Below are positions 16,703 through 31,904 of a stretch of 47,086 nt of DNA, one piece after another. Both the position numbers and the translations under genes were made by a program. The notes below the pieces were generated by a model, which had not been told where the DNA came from, did not search any database, and worked only from the letters and a program-made list of their open reading frames with translations. How positions within the stretch are numbered: the first letter of the stretch is position 1; every line of letters begins with the position of its first letter. Source of the stretch: a phage; NCBI GenBank assembly GCA_020364185.1, contig GCA_020364185.1_4846.1, one strand, 5' to 3'.

Positions 16703-16730
16703 AAAGCCGCTTCATGCGGCTTTATTTATT
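16703..16730. terminator. intrinsic terminator after tRNA (also at 3' end of convergent minus gene)
   Basis: AAGCCGC-ttcat-GCGGCTT stem-loop followed by TATTTATTT. Confidence 0.55.
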
Positions 16731-17133
16731 TCACGACCCGCAAAAGCAACTCATGCACAGGCCGCTTCTCTTCCGTCAACATCGGCCTCCCGAGTGGTGC
16801 CTGCAACTGGATGTAGTTAGCGCATGAATCAATCGGATGTGTCTTGATGTATTCGATAATCTCATTGGCTTTATCGTCAACATCCGACACGTTATACTGC
16901 CCATGTTTGCCGACAATATACAATGAGAAATAGAAGTCACCGCCGAGGCCATCCATCACCTGCGTGCCACCATTGGATTGCAGAACAATAAATTGCTCGT
17001 TGCCATCTCCGGTGTCACTCCAGAACTGTAGCTGCGATGTCCAACCATCATACAATCCCGCATCCTGAAGATATGCGTCAACCAGTTCAAGCGTGTTCAT
17101 ATTAAACCCCAATATTGCAATATCGATGCACAT
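16726..17133 (-). CDS. putative tail completion / neck protein; start uncertain (ATG at 17133 or 17100; track start 17142 is GTG)
   Basis: ORF between HK97 gp10-like gene and major tail gene; function by position only. Confidence 0.35.
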   Translation of the reverse strand: MCIDIAILGFNMNTLELVDAYLQDAGLYDGWTSQLQFWSDTGDGNEQFIVLQSNGGTQVMDGLGGDFYFSLYIVGKHGQYNVSDVDDKANEIIEYIKTHPIDSCANYIQLQAPLGRPMLTEEKRPVHELLLRVVK

Positions 17134-17272
17134 ATCATACACTACCTATGTCACGTAGGCGTGGAACCCGAAACGACACACAAGCAACAATGAATTTAAC
17201 GCCCTTGTCAGTATGGTTTTGTTGCAACCATGTTCCACCTGACAGGGGCGTTACCTTTTTGGAGGCGAGTAA

Positions 17273-17764
17273 ATGATTTCAGAGCGTGATTACATAGCAA
17301 TCGCGTCAAGAGTTAAATACGACCCGATTACCGGATTGTTCACCTGGGCTGTAAGTTGCGGGAAAATATCAAAAGGTGATATTGCAAACTATCACAACGA
17401 CGCAGGATACATAACCCTTGGGAAGAAAAGATTAAGGGCGCACCGAGTGGCTTGGTTTATCCATTATGGATATGTCCCTGAGCATGAAATTGATCACATA
17501 AACAATATTCGTGATGACAATAGAATTTCAAATCTGAGGGAGGCCAGTGACTGCGAGAACGCAAGGAACACAAAGATATCTAAATCAAACACGTCTGGAT
17601 ATAAAGGAGTTCATTTTTGCAAGTGCACTGGGAAATGGAGAGCCACGGTAAAGATGCATGGGAAAACCTATCATCTTGGTAGGTTTTCAGACAAAGAAGC
17701 AGCCCATAAAGCCTATTGCAAAAAAGTAGATGAACTGTTTTTGGAGTTCGCAAACCACGGCTAA
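17273..17764 (+). CDS. HNH homing endonuclease with AP2-like DNA-binding domain
   Basis: GGAGG RBS then ATG 17273; motifs RLRAHRVAWFIHYGYVPEHEIDHINNIRDDNRISNLREAS (HNH) and SGYKGVHFCKCTGKWRATVKMHGKTYHLGRFSDKEAAHKAY (AP2-like); opposite strand to surrounding structural genes. Confidence 0.75.
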   Translation: MISERDYIAIASRVKYDPITGLFTWAVSCGKISKGDIANYHNDAGYITLGKKRLRAHRVAWFIHYGYVPEHEIDHINNIRDDNRISNLREASDCENARNTKISKSNTSGYKGVHFCKCTGKWRATVKMHGKTYHLGRFSDKEAAHKAYCKKVDELFLEFANHG

Positions 17765-18159
17765 ATCTTCATTTCTTTTTTTACCACTGAATCAACGAGG
17801 CTGCGAGTTTTATCGGCAGCCTTTGTTAAGAATCTAGGTTCAGCATTCGGCGACCAGTACGTGCTATTGCCATTGCTGCGCGGTTTACCTGCAAGTTTTC
17901 CGCTGGCGTTATGGACGTACAGTGCATATTTCGCAGAATAACCAACTTTGCCGGTGATTCGCGTCCCGTTAACTTCCACGGTATCAAACTGACTGTTAAT
18001 CAGCGTTGAAGTATCAATTGGCGTTAACGTGGCTGATTCGGTGCGGATGATGTGTGTCGCTGACTTCAGGGCGCGCACAGCTTTTGTGGCGATTATCTCA
18101 TCCACAATTTGCGAAGTTCTCTCTACGGCCTGCCTGACACCTCTTAATTTCGCTGGCAT
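17761..18159 (-). CDS. HK97 gp10-family tail component
   Basis: 132 aa; motif GKVGYSAKYALYVHNASGKLAGKP...YWSPNAEPRFLTKA matches the conserved core recalled for HK97 gp10-family proteins. Confidence 0.5.
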   Translation of the reverse strand: MPAKLRGVRQAVERTSQIVDEIIATKAVRALKSATHIIRTESATLTPIDTSTLINSQFDTVEVNGTRITGKVGYSAKYALYVHNASGKLAGKPRSNGNSTYWSPNAEPRFLTKAADKTRSLVDSVVKKEMKI

Positions 18160-18500
18160 TATGTCACCAGTGCAAAGTCAGGTGGCTCAGCGCGATTGAA
18201 CGTATTGCCGTAGTTAATCACATTCAGAATCTGGTTTGCACCAGCCGCCAGCGGGTCAGCTTCTGTCACTGTGCCAATCATGATGTAATCACCAACATTA
18301 GCGCCAGTGTACTCTGTCCAGAAGGTATTCTTCTGCACAATCTCATTACCTTTCGCATCGGTAGATACATCATCATTAAAGCCGTAATCACACATAATGC
18401 CCACTGGCGCGTCAAAAGTTGGCTTGCCGTACTTGTCAGTGCCGCCTTTGTGCCAGATGGTGCATGGTTGAGTGTAGGAGAACCGAGCCAGCGAAGTCAT
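18159..18500 (-). CDS. putative head closure / head-tail joining protein
   Basis: ATG at 18500 overlaps upstream stop (ATGA); small protein in connector gene block. Confidence 0.4.
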   Translation of the reverse strand: MTSLARFSYTQPCTIWHKGGTDKYGKPTFDAPVGIMCDYGFNDDVSTDAKGNEIVQKNTFWTEYTGANVGDYIMIGTVTEADPLAAGANQILNVINYGNTFNRAEPPDFALVT

Positions 18501-18889
18501 TTGCACTTGCTCCCGCGCACAACCGCAAACCACGGCTTTCCGCTTCCGTCAGGGTCTTCCACCAAATCGCCAGTGCATCCGGCTGTATCCAGTAGCTTCA
18601 TCTGATTGTACAGTGCCACCCACGGCTTACTGCCATACGCGAATGATTGAGATGCCCCAGATGGTGCGCTCTGACTGGTAACGTAGCGCCCTGCGGTATT
18701 TGCGCTAATCAGGATGGAAGCCCACAGCATGATCGCATTTTGTCGGCATTCATCATCAGGATAGTTCAGCTCAAGGCAATCGCTGATTGATGCCACAAGG
18801 CACAGAATGCCAGACGCATCCGTCGTTGTGATGGTCATCCCGCGCGACGCCATCTGACTGACCAGTTCTTCAGGTGTTGGTGCTGCCAT
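18497..18889 (-). CDS. putative head-tail adaptor
   Basis: ATG at 18889 preceded by GGGAG; N-terminus MAAPTPEELVSQ...; position within connector block. Confidence 0.4.
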   Translation of the reverse strand: MAAPTPEELVSQMASRGMTITTTDASGILCLVASISDCLELNYPDDECRQNAIMLWASILISANTAGRYVTSQSAPSGASQSFAYGSKPWVALYNQMKLLDTAGCTGDLVEDPDGSGKPWFAVVRGSKCK

Positions 18890-19154
18890 TTTTCTTTGAC
18901 TCCCGGACTTTCCACCACATTTCAAACAGATTCTTTATCACCAGAGACAGAGCGCCGAGGATTGACGCTACTGCCGCCCACTCTGTCAGGCTGTGTGGAA
19001 TCATAGTCTCAAAATAAGATTGCGTGACAGGTGTTTGCTCTGCAACTTTTAGGCCAATGCCGGTTCCAATAGAAGCATATCCAGCCTTATCAATCACCTG
19101 CCCTGTCGTCCCGCTTATAATCTGCTCTGCGACTTGTCTTAGTGCTCCGTTCAT
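18870..19154 (-). CDS. hypothetical protein with C-terminal hydrophobic helix
   Basis: 94 aa; segment EWAAVASILGALSLVIKNLF is a probable transmembrane helix. Confidence 0.35.
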   Translation of the reverse strand: MNGALRQVAEQIISGTTGQVIDKAGYASIGTGIGLKVAEQTPVTQSYFETMIPHSLTEWAAVASILGALSLVIKNLFEMWWKVRESKKNGSTNT

Positions 19155-19186
19155 TGCGTGTCTCGCTGATGATATGTTTCCAGCAC

Positions 19187-19627
19187 TTATAGATTTGAAT
19201 CAGCGAAAAAACAATGGCGACCACGCCAAGAATAATGTCCAATTTCGCCGCCCCATTTAAAAGTGATGGAAAGGATGAACAGATGGATGCCGATAATAAT
19301 AAATGCGTACTGCGCATGAAGCGGCGTTTCTACAGGCGTGATAAATTCCCATACGAATGACTCTATCGCAACCAGCCATTCGTAAAGGCTCATCGTCAGC
19401 ACGCAGAGCGCCATCTTTGTATTTTTGCGCAGCGCAATAGCCGGAAACAACCAGACCATAGACTGCGCAAGGTAATACAGATATTCGGCGGGAAATGAAT
19501 CAACAAGCACCCATCCAAGATACACAGACATCACCATTGCCGGAATGAACACCAGAAAAGCGACCATGCCCGTGCAGGCAAAACCAAGCACATACATGAT
19601 CATGATGGAAATGTCTGCGCCGAACAT
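19187..19627 (-). CDS. multi-pass membrane protein
   Basis: 146 aa with at least four long hydrophobic segments; preceded by a 39-aa basic ORF (19629-19748, hand-translated). Confidence 0.45.
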   Translation of the reverse strand: MFGADISIMIMYVLGFACTGMVAFLVFIPAMVMSVYLGWVLVDSFPAEYLYYLAQSMVWLFPAIALRKNTKMALCVLTMSLYEWLVAIESFVWEFITPVETPLHAQYAFIIIGIHLFILSITFKWGGEIGHYSWRGRHCFFADSNL

Positions 19628-19793
19628 TATTTCTTACCGCGCGATGGTGAGCGGGTGGAACCGTTTGGCTTCACTGCGCCAGTTTTGCCACCAGTTTTGG
19701 TGTTGCCAGTGGCTCGTGAACGAGACGGACCGTTTGTTGAACCCATGTTTAAATCTCCTGTTGTTTGATTAGCATGATTTTAGCATATTCCTG

Positions 19794-19823
19794 TTGACGT
19801 AGATTGATGAGGTGTTTATAGTT
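19794..19823 (+). promoter_or_regulatory. promoter (TTGACG - 17 bp - TATAGT) with embedded TTGACGTAGATT motif
   Basis: TTGACGTAGATT at 19794-19805, TATAGT about 17 bp downstream of the -35; followed by conserved GAGGTGATAAAAATG leader and ATG 19864. Confidence 0.45.
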
Positions 19824-19863
19824 AGTGGCGTAGAAACAACAATAAATGTTAGAGGTGATAAAA

Positions 19864-20127
19864 ATGGAAATGCGATGGATTGATGTAAACGACGAATTGC
19901 CAGAATCGAAAGACGACTCCGTATTGGTATGCTCTGTTGATGGAAGCAAATACGATGAGAATGGTTTCCCGGAGGGCGGCATTGATATGGTTCATATCCA
20001 AGACTATTTTGATGATATTACTGCTGGTCTTGATGAAAACGGCAATCAGCTTTATACGAAGCGTTACATCGAAATGGGGATAACACATTGGATGTATCTT
20101 CCTGAGTTGCCAGTTTCTGTGAAGTGA
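19864..20127 (+). CDS. DUF551-like small protein
   Basis: 87 aa from ATG 19864 (GAGGTGA RBS); WIDVNDELPE ... VLVC ... THWMYLPELP pattern. Confidence 0.5.
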   Translation: MEMRWIDVNDELPESKDDSVLVCSVDGSKYDENGFPEGGIDMVHIQDYFDDITAGLDENGNQLYTKRYIEMGITHWMYLPELPVSVK

Positions 20128-20149
20128 TAATAAATATTGAGGTGATGAA

Positions 20150-20410
20150 ATGTTTGATATTGATAACCCAAGTGATGACAAAGCCAAGCTGATTGATGCG
20201 GTCGCTTGCAGTTTCGCATCTTGCCAGACAGAAGGTGAATATCAGGTTGTAAAAATGTGCATTGTTGAGTTCTTCTCAGCAATCAACATTCCTGATGATG
20301 AGGCTGTTGATATTCTGCTTAGTGCCGCTGGTAATTGCGCTGAGGCGGACGAATGCATTGATGAACTCGTTGAAGAGTTTGGCGGCATTTTTCAGGGTGA
20401 TGAGGAATAA
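20150..20410 (+). CDS. highly acidic small protein (candidate DNA mimic)
   Basis: 86 aa with about 22 Asp/Glu and 3 Lys; ATG 20150 preceded by GAGGTGATG. Confidence 0.5.
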   Translation: MFDIDNPSDDKAKLIDAVACSFASCQTEGEYQVVKMCIVEFFSAINIPDDEAVDILLSAAGNCAEADECIDELVEEFGGIFQGDEE

Positions 20411-20413
20411 ACA

Positions 20414-21223
20414 ATGAAAACACTAAGCAAAATCTATTCAGACAAAGAAACGCGCAACGGCATCGCTGTGAACAAAACCTATCTCGTGCCAGTTGAACAA
20501 ATCTATCTTGAGCCTGGATACAACATCCGTGAAGCAGATGAGCAGCACGTTGAATATTTCGCGCAGTGCTGGGAATCAGGTCAGCCATTGCCAGCGCTAA
20601 CAGTTATTCCTGATGAGAAAGGAATCCGCATTCTTGATGGTCAGCATCGTTATCTCGGTGCATTGCGTGCCATTGAGCGTGGAGCGCCAATCGTTCGCAT
20701 TGAGTGTAAGGACTTCACTGGCGATGAGGCTGACAAAATTGCTTTCATGGTGTCATCTAGCCAGGGTAAGCAGCTTGACCCGTTTGAACGTGCAAAGGCA
20801 TATACCAGACTGAAAGGCTTTGGCTGGACTAACGAAGAAATCGCCAAGAAGGTAGGCCGCTCAGTATCCGATGTGCAGATGCACCTGTCATTGGGTGATG
20901 TGCCAGCGGAAGTTAAAGCGCGAATCAATGCCGGGCAAATCAGTTATGCAAATGCCGTTGCGGTAACGCGTGAGCATGGCGATGATGCGGTTAAAGTTAT
21001 CGACGAGGCAGTGGAAGAAGCCAAAGCGCAAGGCAAAGATAAAGTCACGGCAAAAGTGCTTAAGTCGAAAAAGGTTAAGCCGGTTGACCGTCTTATTGAG
21101 TTACTCAAACTAGCAGACCATGTGATTCTTCCCGCTGGTCATGTAGTGGCAGAGGATGAGGAATTTATTCAGATTCCTGTTGCTGATATTCACGAGGTTA
21201 TGGCAATTCTGGAGAAGATGTGA
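20414..21223 (+). CDS. ParB-like nuclease domain protein with HTH
   Basis: 269 aa; ParB N-terminal domain signature IRILDGQHRYLGALRA and a central helix-turn-helix-like segment (TNEEIAKKVGRSVSDVQMHL). Confidence 0.7.
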   Translation: MKTLSKIYSDKETRNGIAVNKTYLVPVEQIYLEPGYNIREADEQHVEYFAQCWESGQPLPALTVIPDEKGIRILDGQHRYLGALRAIERGAPIVRIECKDFTGDEADKIAFMVSSSQGKQLDPFERAKAYTRLKGFGWTNEEIAKKVGRSVSDVQMHLSLGDVPAEVKARINAGQISYANAVAVTREHGDDAVKVIDEAVEEAKAQGKDKVTAKVLKSKKVKPVDRLIELLKLADHVILPAGHVVAEDEEFIQIPVADIHEVMAILEKM

Positions 21224-21426
21224 TGAATGAGCGTGATGACAAGTTAATTGCAGGATGGGGCGACCCACTACTGTCTAAGAAGGTTCACTATTTCCGCGAC
21301 GGGAAAATTATCAGTGAATGTGGTAAGTGGATGTTTGGCGGAGGAAGAGAAGATATATCAGCATGGAAGCCTGATGCAATATGCAAACAATGCCTAAGGA
21401 AATTTGAGAAGATGGAGAAGATTTGA
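21220..21426 (+). CDS. hypothetical protein (possible Cys-rich Zn-binding)
   Basis: 68 aa; ATGA overlap with ParB-like gene; Cys spacing ...ECGKW...CKQC. Confidence 0.4.
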   Translation: MMNERDDKLIAGWGDPLLSKKVHYFRDGKIISECGKWMFGGGREDISAWKPDAICKQCLRKFEKMEKI

Positions 21427-21599
21427 TGACGCCAGAACAATTCATCGAAAAACACCTCCGCGTAAAGCTGCCTGACATAGACCAGATGGCAATTGATGCG
21501 GCAATCCAGTATTACAAGCGCAATCAGAGCGCAAAGAAGGGTGGCATTTTTGAAGAATGCCTTAAGGTTGCAAAACAGCACATGATTAAGGTGAAGTGA
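21426..21599 (+). CDS. hypothetical protein (57 aa), translationally coupled
   Basis: hand-translated MTPEQFIEKHLRVKLPDIDQMAIDAAIQYYKRNQSAKKGGIFEECLKVAKQHMIKVK; start codon shares a base with the upstream stop (TGATG at 21424-21428) and its stop TGATG-overlaps the downstream ATG (21597-21601). Confidence 0.3.
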   Translation: MTPEQFIEKHLRVKLPDIDQMAIDAAIQYYKRNQSAKKGGIFEECLKVAKQHMIKVK

Positions 21600-22138
21600 T
21601 GAAACTAAAAATCAGCAAATTATTACTTGAATCAGCATTAATATTTCAGGCGCGCAATGATGTGCGTTACTACCTGAATGGTATCTGCTTCATGCCTGAT
21701 GGCCGCATTGCCTCAACTGACGGTCATCGCGCATTTATTGGTGGCAGCCATGACAACGAGATTGCTGAAAATATAATTGTAAAGGTAAGCAAGTCTCCGA
21801 CAAAGAAATATAACCATGCGATCATCGATACAAAATCTGGAATCGTTACTTATCATTTCGGTCATATAGACACAATGGTTGGTGCTGGTATCTGCGAAGA
21901 GATTGACGGAAGATTCCCTGATATTGATCGCGTGATACCAAAGGAAACGAAAGCAGCAGAGGAAATTGGCTTCAATGCTGGCTATCTGGTTGATATTGAG
22001 AAAGTGGCGAAGCTGTTTAATCCTAAGTTCTGTGGAGTAAAATTTGAACTGAATGGGAACACAAATGCTGCAGTTTGCTGTCTTAGTGCGCCATCTGGCG
22101 AGGCTGCGAAGATTGTTGTTATGCCGATGCGTCTGTAG
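21599..22138 (+). CDS. truncated DNA polymerase III beta sliding-clamp (DnaN) homologue lacking domain I and the middle of domain III
   Basis: 179 aa; colinear matches to E. coli DnaN C-terminal two thirds: NDVRYYLNGICF, STDGHRAF, IDGRFPDIDRVIPK, KFCGVKF and terminal IVVMPMRL (host protein ends YVVMPMRL, from memory). Confidence 0.65.
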   Translation: MKLKISKLLLESALIFQARNDVRYYLNGICFMPDGRIASTDGHRAFIGGSHDNEIAENIIVKVSKSPTKKYNHAIIDTKSGIVTYHFGHIDTMVGAGICEEIDGRFPDIDRVIPKETKAAEEIGFNAGYLVDIEKVAKLFNPKFCGVKFELNGNTNAAVCCLSAPSGEAAKIVVMPMRL

Positions 22139-30454: not shown

Positions 30455-30482
30455 CAAGCCCCATTACGGGGCTTTTTTATTG
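30455..30482. terminator. bidirectional intrinsic terminator
   Basis: AAGCCCC-attac-GGGGCTT followed by TTTTTAT. Confidence 0.65.
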
Positions 30483-30955
30483 CGTAATGAGTTGTACTGC
30501 GCCTCACACATCAATCCCGCCTCCCTTGCCCTGTCAGCGTAATCTGCCAGCTGTCGATTTCTTTCGACAGATTTGCTGAGCACGTCTCCAAGCAAAACCC
30601 CGGTTTCTGCGGCTGGATTGCCAATGGACTCAGCGGCGGAATATCCGACGAGCTGCTTGCGGATGTTTGCGAGTTGTTGCTGCAACCTGCCAGACTTAGC
30701 AGCAGCGTTAACAGCATCATTACGCGCAGCATCAACCCTTTGCTGGGCGTCGGCCTGAATCTTCTGTAGTTCCGCATTGCGTCGTTGCTCCTCTTTCTCG
30801 TTGGCAGCCTTTTGTTCGGCTACAGCCGTTGCGTACCCGTCGTTATATCTCCGCTCGCCATAGCTGGATACCTTGTTGACAACCCACAACGCGCAGATAG
30901 CGACAATTATAATAATTGCCAGCGGTCGCCAGTATTTAATGAGAGTTGCCATCAT
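30464..30955 (-). CDS. i-spanin (Rz-like)
   Basis: 163 aa; N-terminal TM helix (WRPLAIIIIVAICALWVV) then charged coiled-coil periplasmic domain; contains embedded Rz1-like ORF. Confidence 0.6.
   Translation of the reverse strand: MMATLIKYWRPLAIIIIVAICALWVVNKVSSYGERRYNDGYATAVAEQKAANEKEEQRRNAELQKIQADAQQRVDAARNDAVNAAAKSGRLQQQLANIRKQLVGYSAAESIGNPAAETGVLLGDVLSKSVERNRQLADYADRAREAGLMCEAQYNSLRNKKAP
30511..30732 (-). CDS. o-spanin (Rz1-like lipoprotein) embedded in alternate frame of Rz-like gene
   Basis: signal MLRVMMLLTLLLSLAGC with lipobox L-A-G-C, Pro-rich mature part; entirely within 30464-30955 in another frame. Confidence 0.5.
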   Translation of the reverse strand: MLRVMMLLTLLLSLAGCSNNSQTSASSSSDIPPLSPLAIQPQKPGFCLETCSANLSKEIDSWQITLTGQGRRD

Positions 30956-31175
30956 CGCGCAGCCTCCGGTTTTCTTTGCGCATCACGTTCATCTTGCCGA
31001 GGATGCCAACCAGCATGATGGAGTAGCTCACGCCTTTAACCACGATTGGCGGTAGCGCCGCTTTCAGGTCGTCAGGCATCATTACCCACACATGCATCAT
31101 TGCATCTGGCCATAGCTGCAACAGCGAGCAGAATGAAATCCACGCACCGAGCAGCCAGTTGCTTAGCTTTTTCAT
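30936..31175 (-). CDS. putative class II holin
   Basis: 79 aa with two hydrophobic helices and charged C-terminus; ATGA overlap with endolysin stop. Confidence 0.45.
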   Translation of the reverse strand: MKKLSNWLLGAWISFCSLLQLWPDAMMHVWVMMPDDLKAALPPIVVKGVSYSIMLVGILGKMNVMRKENRRLRDDGNSH

Positions 31176-31636
31176 GCCACAGCCCCGCCAGCCTCTTTGT
31201 ATACCTGAATCAGCTTATCCAGCTTCTGCTCGTGCTGACCATAACCAGCACCCGGCAATGAAGCCCAGCGGGAGCGGCATTTATGGATGGCATCAGCAAT
31301 GCGCCCAGCCTCAATATCTGCGGTTGCTTTGCATTCACGGATTAGCTGCATTGCAATAGCGTCCTGCGATGCGGGGGAGAAGTCAGGCAGGCGCAGTTGC
31401 TTTTTGTACGCATCGTAAAACTTAGCCAGCACCTGATAGCGTCCGGCGGCAGTGGATTTGATACCCAGCTTAGGCAGGCTGACCAGCTTTCGCGGGTGGT
31501 CGGAATAATCAGTAAACAGCGAGCCACCAACAATCACATCGTAGCCATGATTATTGGTCTTCTGCCTGCCATTGTCCGTACCCTCACTGTACGCCAGCAT
31601 ATCCAGAAACGCTTTCATGTTTTTGCTAATAGCCAT
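31172..31636 (-). CDS. endolysin, lambda R-like lytic transglycosylase
   Basis: from ATG 31636 (AAGAGG RBS): KAFLDMLAYSEGTDNGRQKTNNHGYDVIVGGSLFTDYSDHPRKLV...AGRYQ...WASLPGAGYGQHE closely matches lambda R as recalled. Confidence 0.8.
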   Translation of the reverse strand: MAISKNMKAFLDMLAYSEGTDNGRQKTNNHGYDVIVGGSLFTDYSDHPRKLVSLPKLGIKSTAAGRYQVLAKFYDAYKKQLRLPDFSPASQDAIAMQLIRECKATADIEAGRIADAIHKCRSRWASLPGAGYGQHEQKLDKLIQVYKEAGGAVA

Positions 31637-31904
31637 ACCAGTAAACCTCTTTTTCAGCTTTGCGTTTTGCTTTATCGCCAGTCTTCTCTCCCCACACGAT
31701 GAAATGCGCAACAGCACATGAGAAGCAGCGAAGGTTATGTTTCTTCAGAAGTGTTGATTTACGGAACACGTCAATGCCAATGTCGGTGGCAAGACTTGTC
31801 AGTGCATCAAACTGATTCTGTGTTGTCTCGGTAGTGATGTAAGGCGATATATCTACGGCATCGGTGACGCCAAGCGTCTCAGAGCCGCGTTGCGATAGTT
31901 TCAT
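31626..31904 (-). CDS. hypothetical protein upstream of endolysin
   Basis: 92-aa ORF, not convincingly hydrophobic; first gene after promoter region. Confidence 0.4.
   Translation of the reverse strand: MKLSQRGSETLGVTDAVDISPYITTETTQNQFDALTSLATDIGIDVFRKSTLLKKHNLRCFSCAVAHFIVWGEKTGDKAKRKAEKEVYWYGY

Follow-up and report, generated by a model that had tools for sequence, protein, structure and literature searches.

The described systems that come closest to the locus analyzed here are the class II holins, the lysis genes of phage P2, the Rz/Rz1 spanins, the superinfection exclusion proteins and a pair of mycobacteriophage lysis proteins. The antiholin of S21, the 68/71 pinholin of phage 21, arises from an upstream in-frame start. 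In phage P2, lysis membrane genes (of the set Y, K, lysA, lysB and lysC) lie within the late morphogenetic operon, between L/X and R/S, and its nonessential LysA protein of 141 amino acids (aa), which we take to be polytopic, is annotated as affecting lysis timing. Rz and Rz1 are two membrane-associated proteins read from different overlapping frames in a lysis context, and the exclusion proteins SieA of P22, Imm of T4 and gp15 of HK97 are expressed early or from prophages. In mycobacteriophages of cluster F1, two distinct small transmembrane (TM) proteins, LysF1a and LysF1b, are described as jointly regulating lysis (PMC13056207). Here, we describe a locus on the minus strand of a 47,086-nucleotide (nt) stretch of phage DNA (hereafter the window; GenBank assembly GCA_020364185.1, contig GCA_020364185.1_4846.1) which, by sequence comparison, is one copy of a conserved four-gene membrane module. 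In transcription order, its genes are as follows:

19627-19746, minus strand: gene 1, a 39-aa very basic hydrophilic peptide (MGSTNGPSRSRATGNTKTGGKTGAVKPNGSTRSPSRGKK), identified as an open reading frame (ORF) matching phrog_34767 (E = 1.1e-25)
19187-19627, minus strand: gene 2, a 146-aa polytopic inner-membrane protein with 4-5 TM helices (phrog_14688, E = 3.9e-95; alignments; AlphaFold2)
19090-19242, minus strand: gene 3 (orfX), TTG start, 50 aa (MDIILGVVAIVFSLIQIYKCWKHIISETRNERSTKTSRRADYKRDDRAGD), recognized by its open frame, conservation and dN/dS
18870-19154, minus strand: gene 4, a 94-aa protein (phrog_13738, E = 3.2e-60; alignments; AlphaFold2)

An earlier, sequence-only reading of the window had singled out genes 1, 2 and 4 as a membrane-protein cluster. 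All three are present on the minus strand, and each matches its own PHROG family end to end. For the 39-aa ORF, that reading was right about its existence and basic character, but its coordinates (19629-19748) were shifted by 2 nt: the ATG occupies 19746-19744 and the TAA 19629-19627, with a GGAG sequence 8 nt 5' of the ATG. The ORFs are already deposited in databases as hypothetical, "membrane" or "lipoprotein" genes. New here are the overlapping gene orfX, the mobile four-gene module and its connection to lysis cassettes and class II holins, and the corrected lipoprotein label.

The fourth gene, orfX, had been overlooked by the sequence-only reading. Read in a different frame from its neighbors, it shares 56 nt with the end of gene 2 and 65 nt with the beginning of gene 4, and its predicted product consists of one N-terminal TM helix followed by a charged, net-basic tail. 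This alternative frame over the junction of the 146-aa and 94-aa genes reads LDIILGVVAIVFSLIQIYKCWKHIISETRNER...; Klebsiella phage ZX4, which lacks the 146-aa gene, has MDIAIGVIVMALSLVQVYRCWKFIIRRIINERR at the orfX position, just 5' of its 94-aa homologue, and the orfX homologue of Yersinia phage P400 is MDILIPILTIAAAGYGIYSAWRQIIKGWKNER. In all 86 loci of this phage group that we fetched (30 distinct sequences), the TTG lies exactly 88 nt 5' of the gene 4 ATG and the frame is open. We compared nonsynonymous (dN) and synonymous (dS) divergence in the three frames. Between the window and locus L072 (loci are identified by L numbers), the orfX frame gave a dN of 0.12 and a dS of 1.50, as against 0.25/0.12 and 0.32/0.15 in the other two frames; between L072 and the Klebsiella-type locus L037, the corresponding values were 0.34/1.40, as against 0.51/0.26 and 0.46/0.61. 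Third codon positions of orfX carried about twice the changes seen at first or second positions. By these comparisons, purifying selection is confined to the orfX frame, the only one in which dN is far below dS.

Because the GGGGCGGCGAAATTG context at the orfX start is conserved even in loci without the 146-aa gene, it is probably the ribosome-binding site and start of orfX. This start signal may also explain in part why the KWGGEIG motif of the 146-aa protein is invariant, whereas the tail that follows (residues 129-146), which overlaps orfX, is disordered and variable. A different interpretation, in which the 146-aa gene is frameshifted and the alternative frame encodes its true C-terminus, was rejected: the annotated frame is conserved as far as KWGGEIGY, and the other frame is a separate TTG-initiated gene that is present where the 146-aa gene is absent. 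orfX is unannotated in all six records of relatives that we checked (Bas77, 64795_sal3, ZX4, P400, Vi II-E1 and Skate), although the 94-aa gene whose start it straddles was found by tblastn in 205 phage records, some of them from members of the BASEL reference collection or from phages put forward for Salmonella/Klebsiella biocontrol. A terminator-like hairpin (19215-19228, minus strand; TGGCGTGGTCGCCA then TTGTTTTTTC) lies just within orfX, in the overlap with the tail of the 146-aa gene; it may be there by chance, or it could act as an attenuator between the polytopic gene and the pair formed by orfX and gene 4.

The module layout was seen in about 15 divergent phage lineages, and in the remote ones the gene 4 family protein is 21-44% identical to that of the window. 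The recurrent order is a basic peptide, a polytopic protein of 130-165 aa, an overlapping small TM protein of 39-59 aa and a family protein of 85-118 aa. Genes of the orfX and 94-aa types are present in every lineage examined, including those without a polytopic gene; in most lineages the polytopic protein is encoded directly 5' of them, and in many a small polycationic peptide precedes it, its stop codon overlapping the polytopic start. The invariant core of the module is orfX plus the 94-aa protein, to which the polytopic protein and the basic peptide are common yet dispensable additions. The small TM ORF extends across the family gene's start in all the remote lineages examined, and several of these ORFs share an (I/V)Y(K/N)C(W/V)KH(I/V)I motif with orfX.

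The module moves as one piece. It is found between the major capsid gene and the gene for a DUF7370 head-tail adaptor in the window, P400, L094, L096, L104 and L108, an arrangement that may have been inherited once because these phages share their capsid, adaptor and terminator set. In L113 it occupies a similar head-to-completion position, and in L097 it lies 5' of the terminase genes; in L100, L106 and L089-L091 it forms an isolated same-strand island among opposite-strand genes or sits among early-type genes. That the same module occurs in other phages without connector neighbors bears out the earlier view of a distinct accessory system. In four separate lineages, the module stands directly beside a peptidoglycan-hydrolase gene, each time of a different enzyme family:

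Paraglaciecola phage JLT2 (L088) and L092: DUF5675 (YkuD/Tlde1-like fold) beside the module
L099: Peptidase_M15_4, together with a recognized GTA_holin_3TM holin, beside the module
L110 and L111: Amidase_2 beside the module
L112: Phage_lysozyme beside the module

The DUF5675 proteins (113-114 aa; JLT2 gp30, L088 4273-4614, and L092 3752-4096) show a weak match to the Tlde1 domain and carry an H..SxGC motif. Both genes are at an endolysin-like position, and that of JLT2 is the sole annotated cell-wall-enzyme-like gene of that phage, in which no other endolysin or holin is annotated; the proteins may represent an unrecognized type of endolysin. We considered whether the module-side membrane proteins of JLT2, L110 and L112 are GTA_holin_3TM holins as well, which neither BLASTP nor Pfam supported; only L099 has a recognized one. 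An extra small TM ORF is kept in two unrelated contigs, L110 (1269-1382; MLPPRRKQEPY...) and L112 (4314-4442; MLPPNAKPEPY...). In L112 it lies between the 163-aa membrane protein of the cassette and the module, and in L110 it is nested in a called 116-aa ORF that follows a 152-aa membrane protein.

The 94-aa protein comprises, in order, an N-terminal helix, an invariant GQxIDKxGYxSIGxGxG segment that is Gly-rich and weakly hydrophobic, a variable linker, a TM helix at about residues 57-80 with an IKN motif, and a basic tail. This second TM segment (TM2) and the basic tail are clear from the alignments and from the AlphaFold2 model, which has a confident helix at residues 44-88, with a predicted local distance difference test score (pLDDT) of 83-91 over residues 61-80. 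A search of the family profile against 1.84 billion representative proteins returned only 28 proteins at E ≤ 1e-3, with about 20 full-length remote members of 76-118 aa. The remote members share the IDKxGYxSIGxGxG motif, the variable linker, a TM helix that begins with (T/S)(D/E)W and ends with IKN, and the charged tail.

Annotated secondary PHROG matches among 27 members of the family were to holin families only (phrog_20, four members, best E = 1.4e-6; phrog_4237; phrog_1350; phrog_920). Phage_holin_2_1 (PF04971), the Pfam model for holin S of phage 21, matched the window protein at 13.6 bits (E = 0.068), 7 of 17 close members (best E = 0.001) and the remote member P0249 at 19.5 bits (E = 9.8e-4), in the last case over positions 7-61 of the 64 in the hidden Markov model and hence over both TM segments. 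Remote members also gave weak matches to Phage_holin_2_3 and Phage_holin_2_2 (HP1-type and T7-type holin models), and NCBIfam yielded scattered single-member matches only. We then recovered and aligned S21 homologues for a profile-profile comparison with the 94-aa family using hhalign. The two families matched with a probability of 55-63% (P = 7e-5 to 1e-4) over ..(S/T)x(E/Q)WAA..LG.L.....(K)(I/V)RE..(K/R)K. The real score of 24.9 compares with 9.6 for the reversed profile and with maxima of 14.2 for 40 column shuffles and 19.4 for 40 block shuffles, such that it beats all 81 composition-matched controls (80 shuffles plus the reversed profile). Holin Y of P2, which has a similar composition (a TM helix and a charged tail), reached a probability of 3% with the 94-aa family. 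The similarity to S21 is weak but reproducible, lying above background and below the level usually accepted as homology; it suggests that the 94-aa protein may be a distant relative of the class II, pinholin-like holins, and we do not file it as a member.

The product of gene 2 is a polytopic membrane protein. Its AlphaFold2 model (mean pLDDT 72.7) contains five helices (residues 2-19, 22-42, 48-65, 70-96 and 104-129), and the Vi II-E1 record lists four TMHMM helices for the orthologue. Topology prediction, which the sequence-only reading had proposed as a check, thus yielded 4-5 TM helices for the 146-aa protein and a C-terminal TM helix for the 94-aa protein, and no soluble fold. Its judgment that these are integral membrane proteins and not connector parts agrees with the predicted structures. 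tblastn located the 146-aa protein in 103 phage records. It carries the conserved acidic/aromatic motifs EY..QS..W and YEW..ESFxW..PVE, and both it and the 94-aa protein can still be aligned colinearly with their counterparts in Yersinia phage P400, at 43-44% identity.

The "lipoprotein" label attached to the 146-aa protein goes back to a match of the PROSITE lipobox pattern PS00013 within the first TM helix, in the Vi II-E1 record. We reject it: Cys18 is replaced by V or I in 6 of 14 aligned homologues and by L in a seventh (P400), and the residues before it (MFGADISIM...) carry no positive charge, so that the positively charged N-region of a signal peptide is missing. The label is an annotation artifact that has spread through many records.

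Relatives of the polytopic protein were traced in steps. Its match to the L094 polytopic protein is weak and runs colinearly through W..A(L/I)(E/D)..P(V/N)ET (PHROG E = 0.004; hhalign P = 1e-3), and the L094 type in turn matches the L090 type (E = 4e-19). Sequence comparison demonstrated no direct homology of the window protein to the polytopic proteins of JLT2 or L090; it is linked to the L090 type solely through the intermediate L094, and the JLT2 type is unlinked by sequence. A fold search with the 146-aa model returned uncharacterized phage proteins only from BFVD and nothing from the PDB. The BFVD matches include several phage proteins of 139-171 aa (for example A0A088C438, A0A385E273 and A0A6B9JAW6) with a Foldseek probability of about 1.0 and a TM-score of about 0.6, and these model-based matches hint that small polytopic membrane proteins of phages form a wider fold family.

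Gene 1 ends where gene 2 begins, its stop codon overlapping the gene 2 start (TAATG). The peptide contains four R and five K residues and no D or E, for a net charge of +9. A gene 1-type ORF ending at the start of the polytopic gene was found in 40 of the 43 loci that carry a polytopic gene, and the C-terminal motif VKPNGS..SPSRG(K/R) is conserved among these ORFs. Analogous basic peptides are encoded 5' of the polytopic gene in P400, JLT2, L092, L094, L099, L100 and L107, and the VKPNGS / SPSRG-type motif is common to the window group, L094, L101 and L108. The peptide also repeats itself internally, with GSTNGPSR towards the N-terminus and GSTRSPSR towards the C-terminus; the P400 peptide has GSSNGPSR at both ends.

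Any role of the module in lysis has to be reconciled with the lysis genes that the window carries elsewhere:

30464-31904: complete canonical holin-endolysin-spanin cassette, about 11 kb from the module
31172-31636: soluble lambda R-type endolysin, about 12 kb from the module
30936-31175: 79-aa two-TM holin (phrog_13249, E = 3.7e-50)
30464-30955, minus strand: Rz, spanin
30511-30777, minus strand: embedded Rz1-type ORF with an LAGC lipobox, in a different frame within Rz

Klebsiella phage ZX4 keeps the same canonical cassette. Because the window and ZX4 both carry a complete cassette elsewhere, the module appears to be additional to a holin and not the sole one, and we rejected it as the primary lysis cassette of the window. 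The Rz/Rz1 pair is a second instance of overlapping membrane-protein genes in this genome. Just 5' of the full-length endolysin gene lies a 92-aa ORF (31626-31904, minus strand) that also matches endolysin PHROGs (phrog_10457, E = 1.9e-42). Its length falls short of a complete enzyme, and in Bas77 it is annotated as a second "endolysin"; it may be what is left of a domain or a small protein in its own right.

A role in lysis timing is the simplest explanation for small, presumably late membrane proteins that are holin-like and recur beside endolysins in other lineages. We propose that the module is an accessory lysis-control device of the holin/antiholin type that operates beside the canonical cassette, a proposal that we regard as evenly balanced between right and wrong. 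Holins are late genes, and the position of the module in the late morphogenetic operon fits such expression. Late in infection, the holin-like 94-aa protein would accumulate in the cytoplasmic membrane as a hole-former or depolarizer, its C-terminus predicted to face the cytoplasm. The four products would interact, with orfX (N-out and C-in by the positive-inside rule) and/or the polytopic protein restraining or tuning the 94-aa protein as an antiholin or immunity protein does. The membrane potential would change as a result, and this would set the time of depolarization and so trigger or delay the main holin, and hence the firing of the canonical cassette (30464-31904). Speculatively, the weak TTG start of orfX would suit a sub-stoichiometric regulator.

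Several observations weigh against this proposal. In the window, the 94-aa gene is not adjacent to an endolysin gene, and here as in P400, L094, L096, L104 and L108 the module is not close to the lysis genes but between capsid and adaptor; moreover, the window endolysin is soluble, so a pinhole could not release it. No family model was reached at its curated threshold, the 13.6 bits of the window protein and the 19.5 bits of the best remote member comparing with a cut-off of 26. The hhalign match to S21, at a probability of only 47-63%, covers just TM2 and the tail, and single TM helices with charged tails can arise by convergence. With about 12-15 residues between charged positions in the window protein, the first hydrophobic segment would make a short TM helix, and its AlphaFold2 pLDDT is below 50; among the members scanned for hydropathy, this Gly-rich segment was called TM only in P0261. 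The polytopic protein gave no detectable relative of known function in sequence, profile, BFVD and PDB comparisons, and literature searches returned no functional, experimental or proteomic information on the module genes.

A bolder interpretation, to which we give distinctly less credence and which we offer as tentative, is that the module is an unrecognized, mobile multi-protein membrane machine of tailed phages. At its heart would be a domesticated pinholin under the control of an obligatory partner from an overlapping frame; together with an optional "immunity-like" polytopic subunit and a polycationic peptide, it would act as an independent membrane-potential switch. Such a machine could serve as a new lysis clock or close the door late against superinfection, and would be unlike the described holin/antiholin pairs.

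Among the other explanations, superinfection exclusion or a block to DNA entry survives best, although we consider it unlikely. The sequence-only reading had suggested an exclusion or injection-related system, in which the inner-membrane proteins would stop the delivery of a second phage's genome or sense superinfection. Small inner-membrane phage proteins encoded on movable islands often do this, as T4 Imm, HK97 gp15 and P22 SieA illustrate, and the island-like placement of the module among opposite-strand early genes in L100 and L106, the PHROGs category of the 94-aa family ("moron") and the size of the polytopic protein, near that of P22 SieA (164 aa), would all be in keeping with it. The searches lent that suggestion no support, however: similarity to SieA was absent (hhalign probability 0.5%), and neither the Pfam exclusion families nor PADLOC gave a match. 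In a virulent phage, genes heading a late structural operon would probably come late for exclusion to be useful, retention of the module in a structural operon over deep divergence and its recurrent adjacency to endolysins are unexpected for exclusion genes, and all family-level hints point to holins.

It is less probable still that the module is the real or a co-essential hole-former of the phage, with the 94-aa protein and orfX acting as a two-component holin and the 79-aa protein as a second holin or a regulator. JLT2 would fit this arrangement well, since its module is at a holin position just 5' of its only cell-wall-enzyme-like gene, with no other annotated endolysin or holin. Every lineage has the orfX/94-aa core, and the 79-aa protein is itself called a "holin" on the strength of its membership of phrog_13249 and its position, Pfam placing it in DUF7940. 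Yet in L099 a recognized GTA_holin_3TM holin adjoins the module; a typical two-TM holin is encoded between the endolysin and spanin genes of the window, ZX4 and Bas77; and the cassettes of JLT2, L110 and L112 each include a further, unassigned membrane protein.

Equally doubtful is a different late function in host takeover, such as an ion-conducting viroporin complex or a membrane counter-defense device. In the predicted structure of the polytopic protein, the invariant residues E48 and E83 and the nearly invariant E89 fall in helices and the invariant E100 in the loop after helix 4, which may suggest ion or substrate binding; the fold group of 140-170-aa phage proteins to which it appears to belong is entirely uncharacterized, and in L099 and L112 no more than a few genes separate the module from a Tad2-like anti-defense gene. 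Positive evidence is nonetheless absent, and the holin similarity and endolysin adjacency would be left unexplained. Least probable of all is a membrane function in virion assembly, for example in anchoring or organizing head-tail joining at the membrane: the adaptor start lies within the 94-aa gene, the module is placed between capsid and DUF7370 genes in six lineages and L113 is similar, but the synteny of lineages with a common capsid/adaptor/terminator set may have been inherited once and not repeatedly selected, the module is found elsewhere with no morphogenetic neighbor at all, none of the present data favor an assembly role, and no siphovirus is known to require membrane proteins to join head and tail.

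The window belongs to a Skatevirus-like siphovirus of Salmonella/E. coli. For the 2 kb around the module, 191 phage records match at 80-99% identity, including the Salmonella phages 64795_sal3, Seszw, Skate and Vi II-E1, the E. coli phages Bas77-81, and Klebsiella phages; the matching phages are virulent "small siphoviruses" of 45-48 kb, which the BASEL paper groups as Skatevirus and relatives. In Bas77, a fully annotated relative, the genome runs from terminase, portal and head genes through a separate lysis cassette and the capsid to an early block on the opposite strand (RusA, methylase, ParB-like and anti-restriction genes), and then to an operon that is headed by the module genes and continues through the connector and tail genes. 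The corresponding surroundings of the module in the window are:

18497-18889, minus strand: DUF7370 head-tail adaptor gene, outside the module (Pfam DUF7370, E = 3.9e-36; phrog_786)
19747-19845, no strand assigned: divergent intergenic region, start of the minus-strand transcription unit (promoter scan and sequence)
19846-22138, plus strand: early-type gene block (DUF551 and anti-restriction PHROG verified; ParB-like and others named from the Bas77 annotation)

The module thus stands where the sequence-only reading had placed it, at the head of the minus-strand connector operon and 5' of the head-tail adaptor gene. The ATG of the DUF7370 gene (18889) sits 20 nt within gene 4, and its product is labeled a head-to-tail adaptor in one related record; overlapping starts and stops chain the module genes to the late morphogenetic operon. 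A scan for sigma-70 promoters found no consensus promoter for the strand of the module. It did find a sigma-70-like site at 19794-19822 on the plus strand (TTGACG, 17-nt spacer, TATAGT; 10 of 12 matches), which faces the early block and points away from the module. In the window the early block parts the capsid genes from the module, whereas in Yersinia phage P400 (L005) the module directly follows the major capsid gene. Because P400 has no intervening early block, the Skatevirus late operon looks as though it was split by a later insertion of that block. Further along, a 163-aa ORF on the plus strand (17273-17764) breaks the minus-strand connector/tail operon between an HK97 gp10-like gene (17761-18159) and the tail-terminator gene (16726-17142); an ORF at the same position is annotated as an HNH endonuclease in 64795_sal3, and the arrangement resembles a homing-endonuclease insertion.

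If the module does tune lysis, it would constitute a new, genetically tractable lysis-clock system composed of a holin-like protein, an overlapping-frame partner and optional subunits. The timing of lysis and the burst size matter for the production of phages and for phage therapy. For specialists, the universal overlapping partner gene and the unit-wise mobility are noteworthy in themselves, and the system can be tested directly in BASEL phages.

Set against the described systems, the locus resembles each of them in part. Like S21 68/71 and other class II holins, the 94-aa protein is small and has a weakly hydrophobic first segment rich in Gly, Ala and Ser, a TM helix (TM2) starting with (S/T)x(E/Q)WAA, and a K/R-rich tail predicted to be cytoplasmic (..K(I/V)RE..(K/R)K). 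Unlike S21, it has about 20 extra N-terminal residues, a longer linker between the segments, and the invariant IDKxGY and IKN motifs, which are absent from S21. Its gene in the window is away from the endolysin gene, whose product is soluble and not of the signal-anchor-release (SAR) type, and it is always paired with an overlapping small TM gene, of which S21 has no equivalent; the S21 antiholin is a product of the same reading frame.

The arrangement in P2 offers a parallel for lysis membrane genes embedded among late morphogenetic genes, and LysA is close in size to the 146-aa protein. At the sequence level, however, no similarity was detected between the 146-aa protein and LysA (hhalign probability 0.1%) or between the 94-aa family and holin Y (3%), and P2 keeps its holin and endolysin in one block, whereas the canonical cassette of the window is about 11 kb from the module. 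The exclusion proteins SieA, Imm and gp15 are likewise small inner-membrane proteins encoded by accessory, movable genes; homology to SieA was not detected, T4 Imm and HK97 gp15 were covered only by the Pfam exclusion-family search, which gave no match, and the module differs in its late-operon position and in its association with lysis genes elsewhere.

With LysF1a and LysF1b, likened here by description only, the module would share two small TM proteins in lysis control (PMC13056207); those genes lie within the lysis cassette of phages with a mycobacterial host, and the abstract mentions no overlapping-frame architecture, polytopic partner or basic peptide. Rz and Rz1, of which the window has its own example at 30464-30955, provide the precedent for two membrane-associated proteins drawn from different overlapping frames. 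In contrast to that pair, orfX has neither a lipobox nor a signal peptide, there is no long periplasmic coiled coil in the 94-aa protein, and the overlap is partial, with orfX straddling the gene 4 start and not embedded within its partner.

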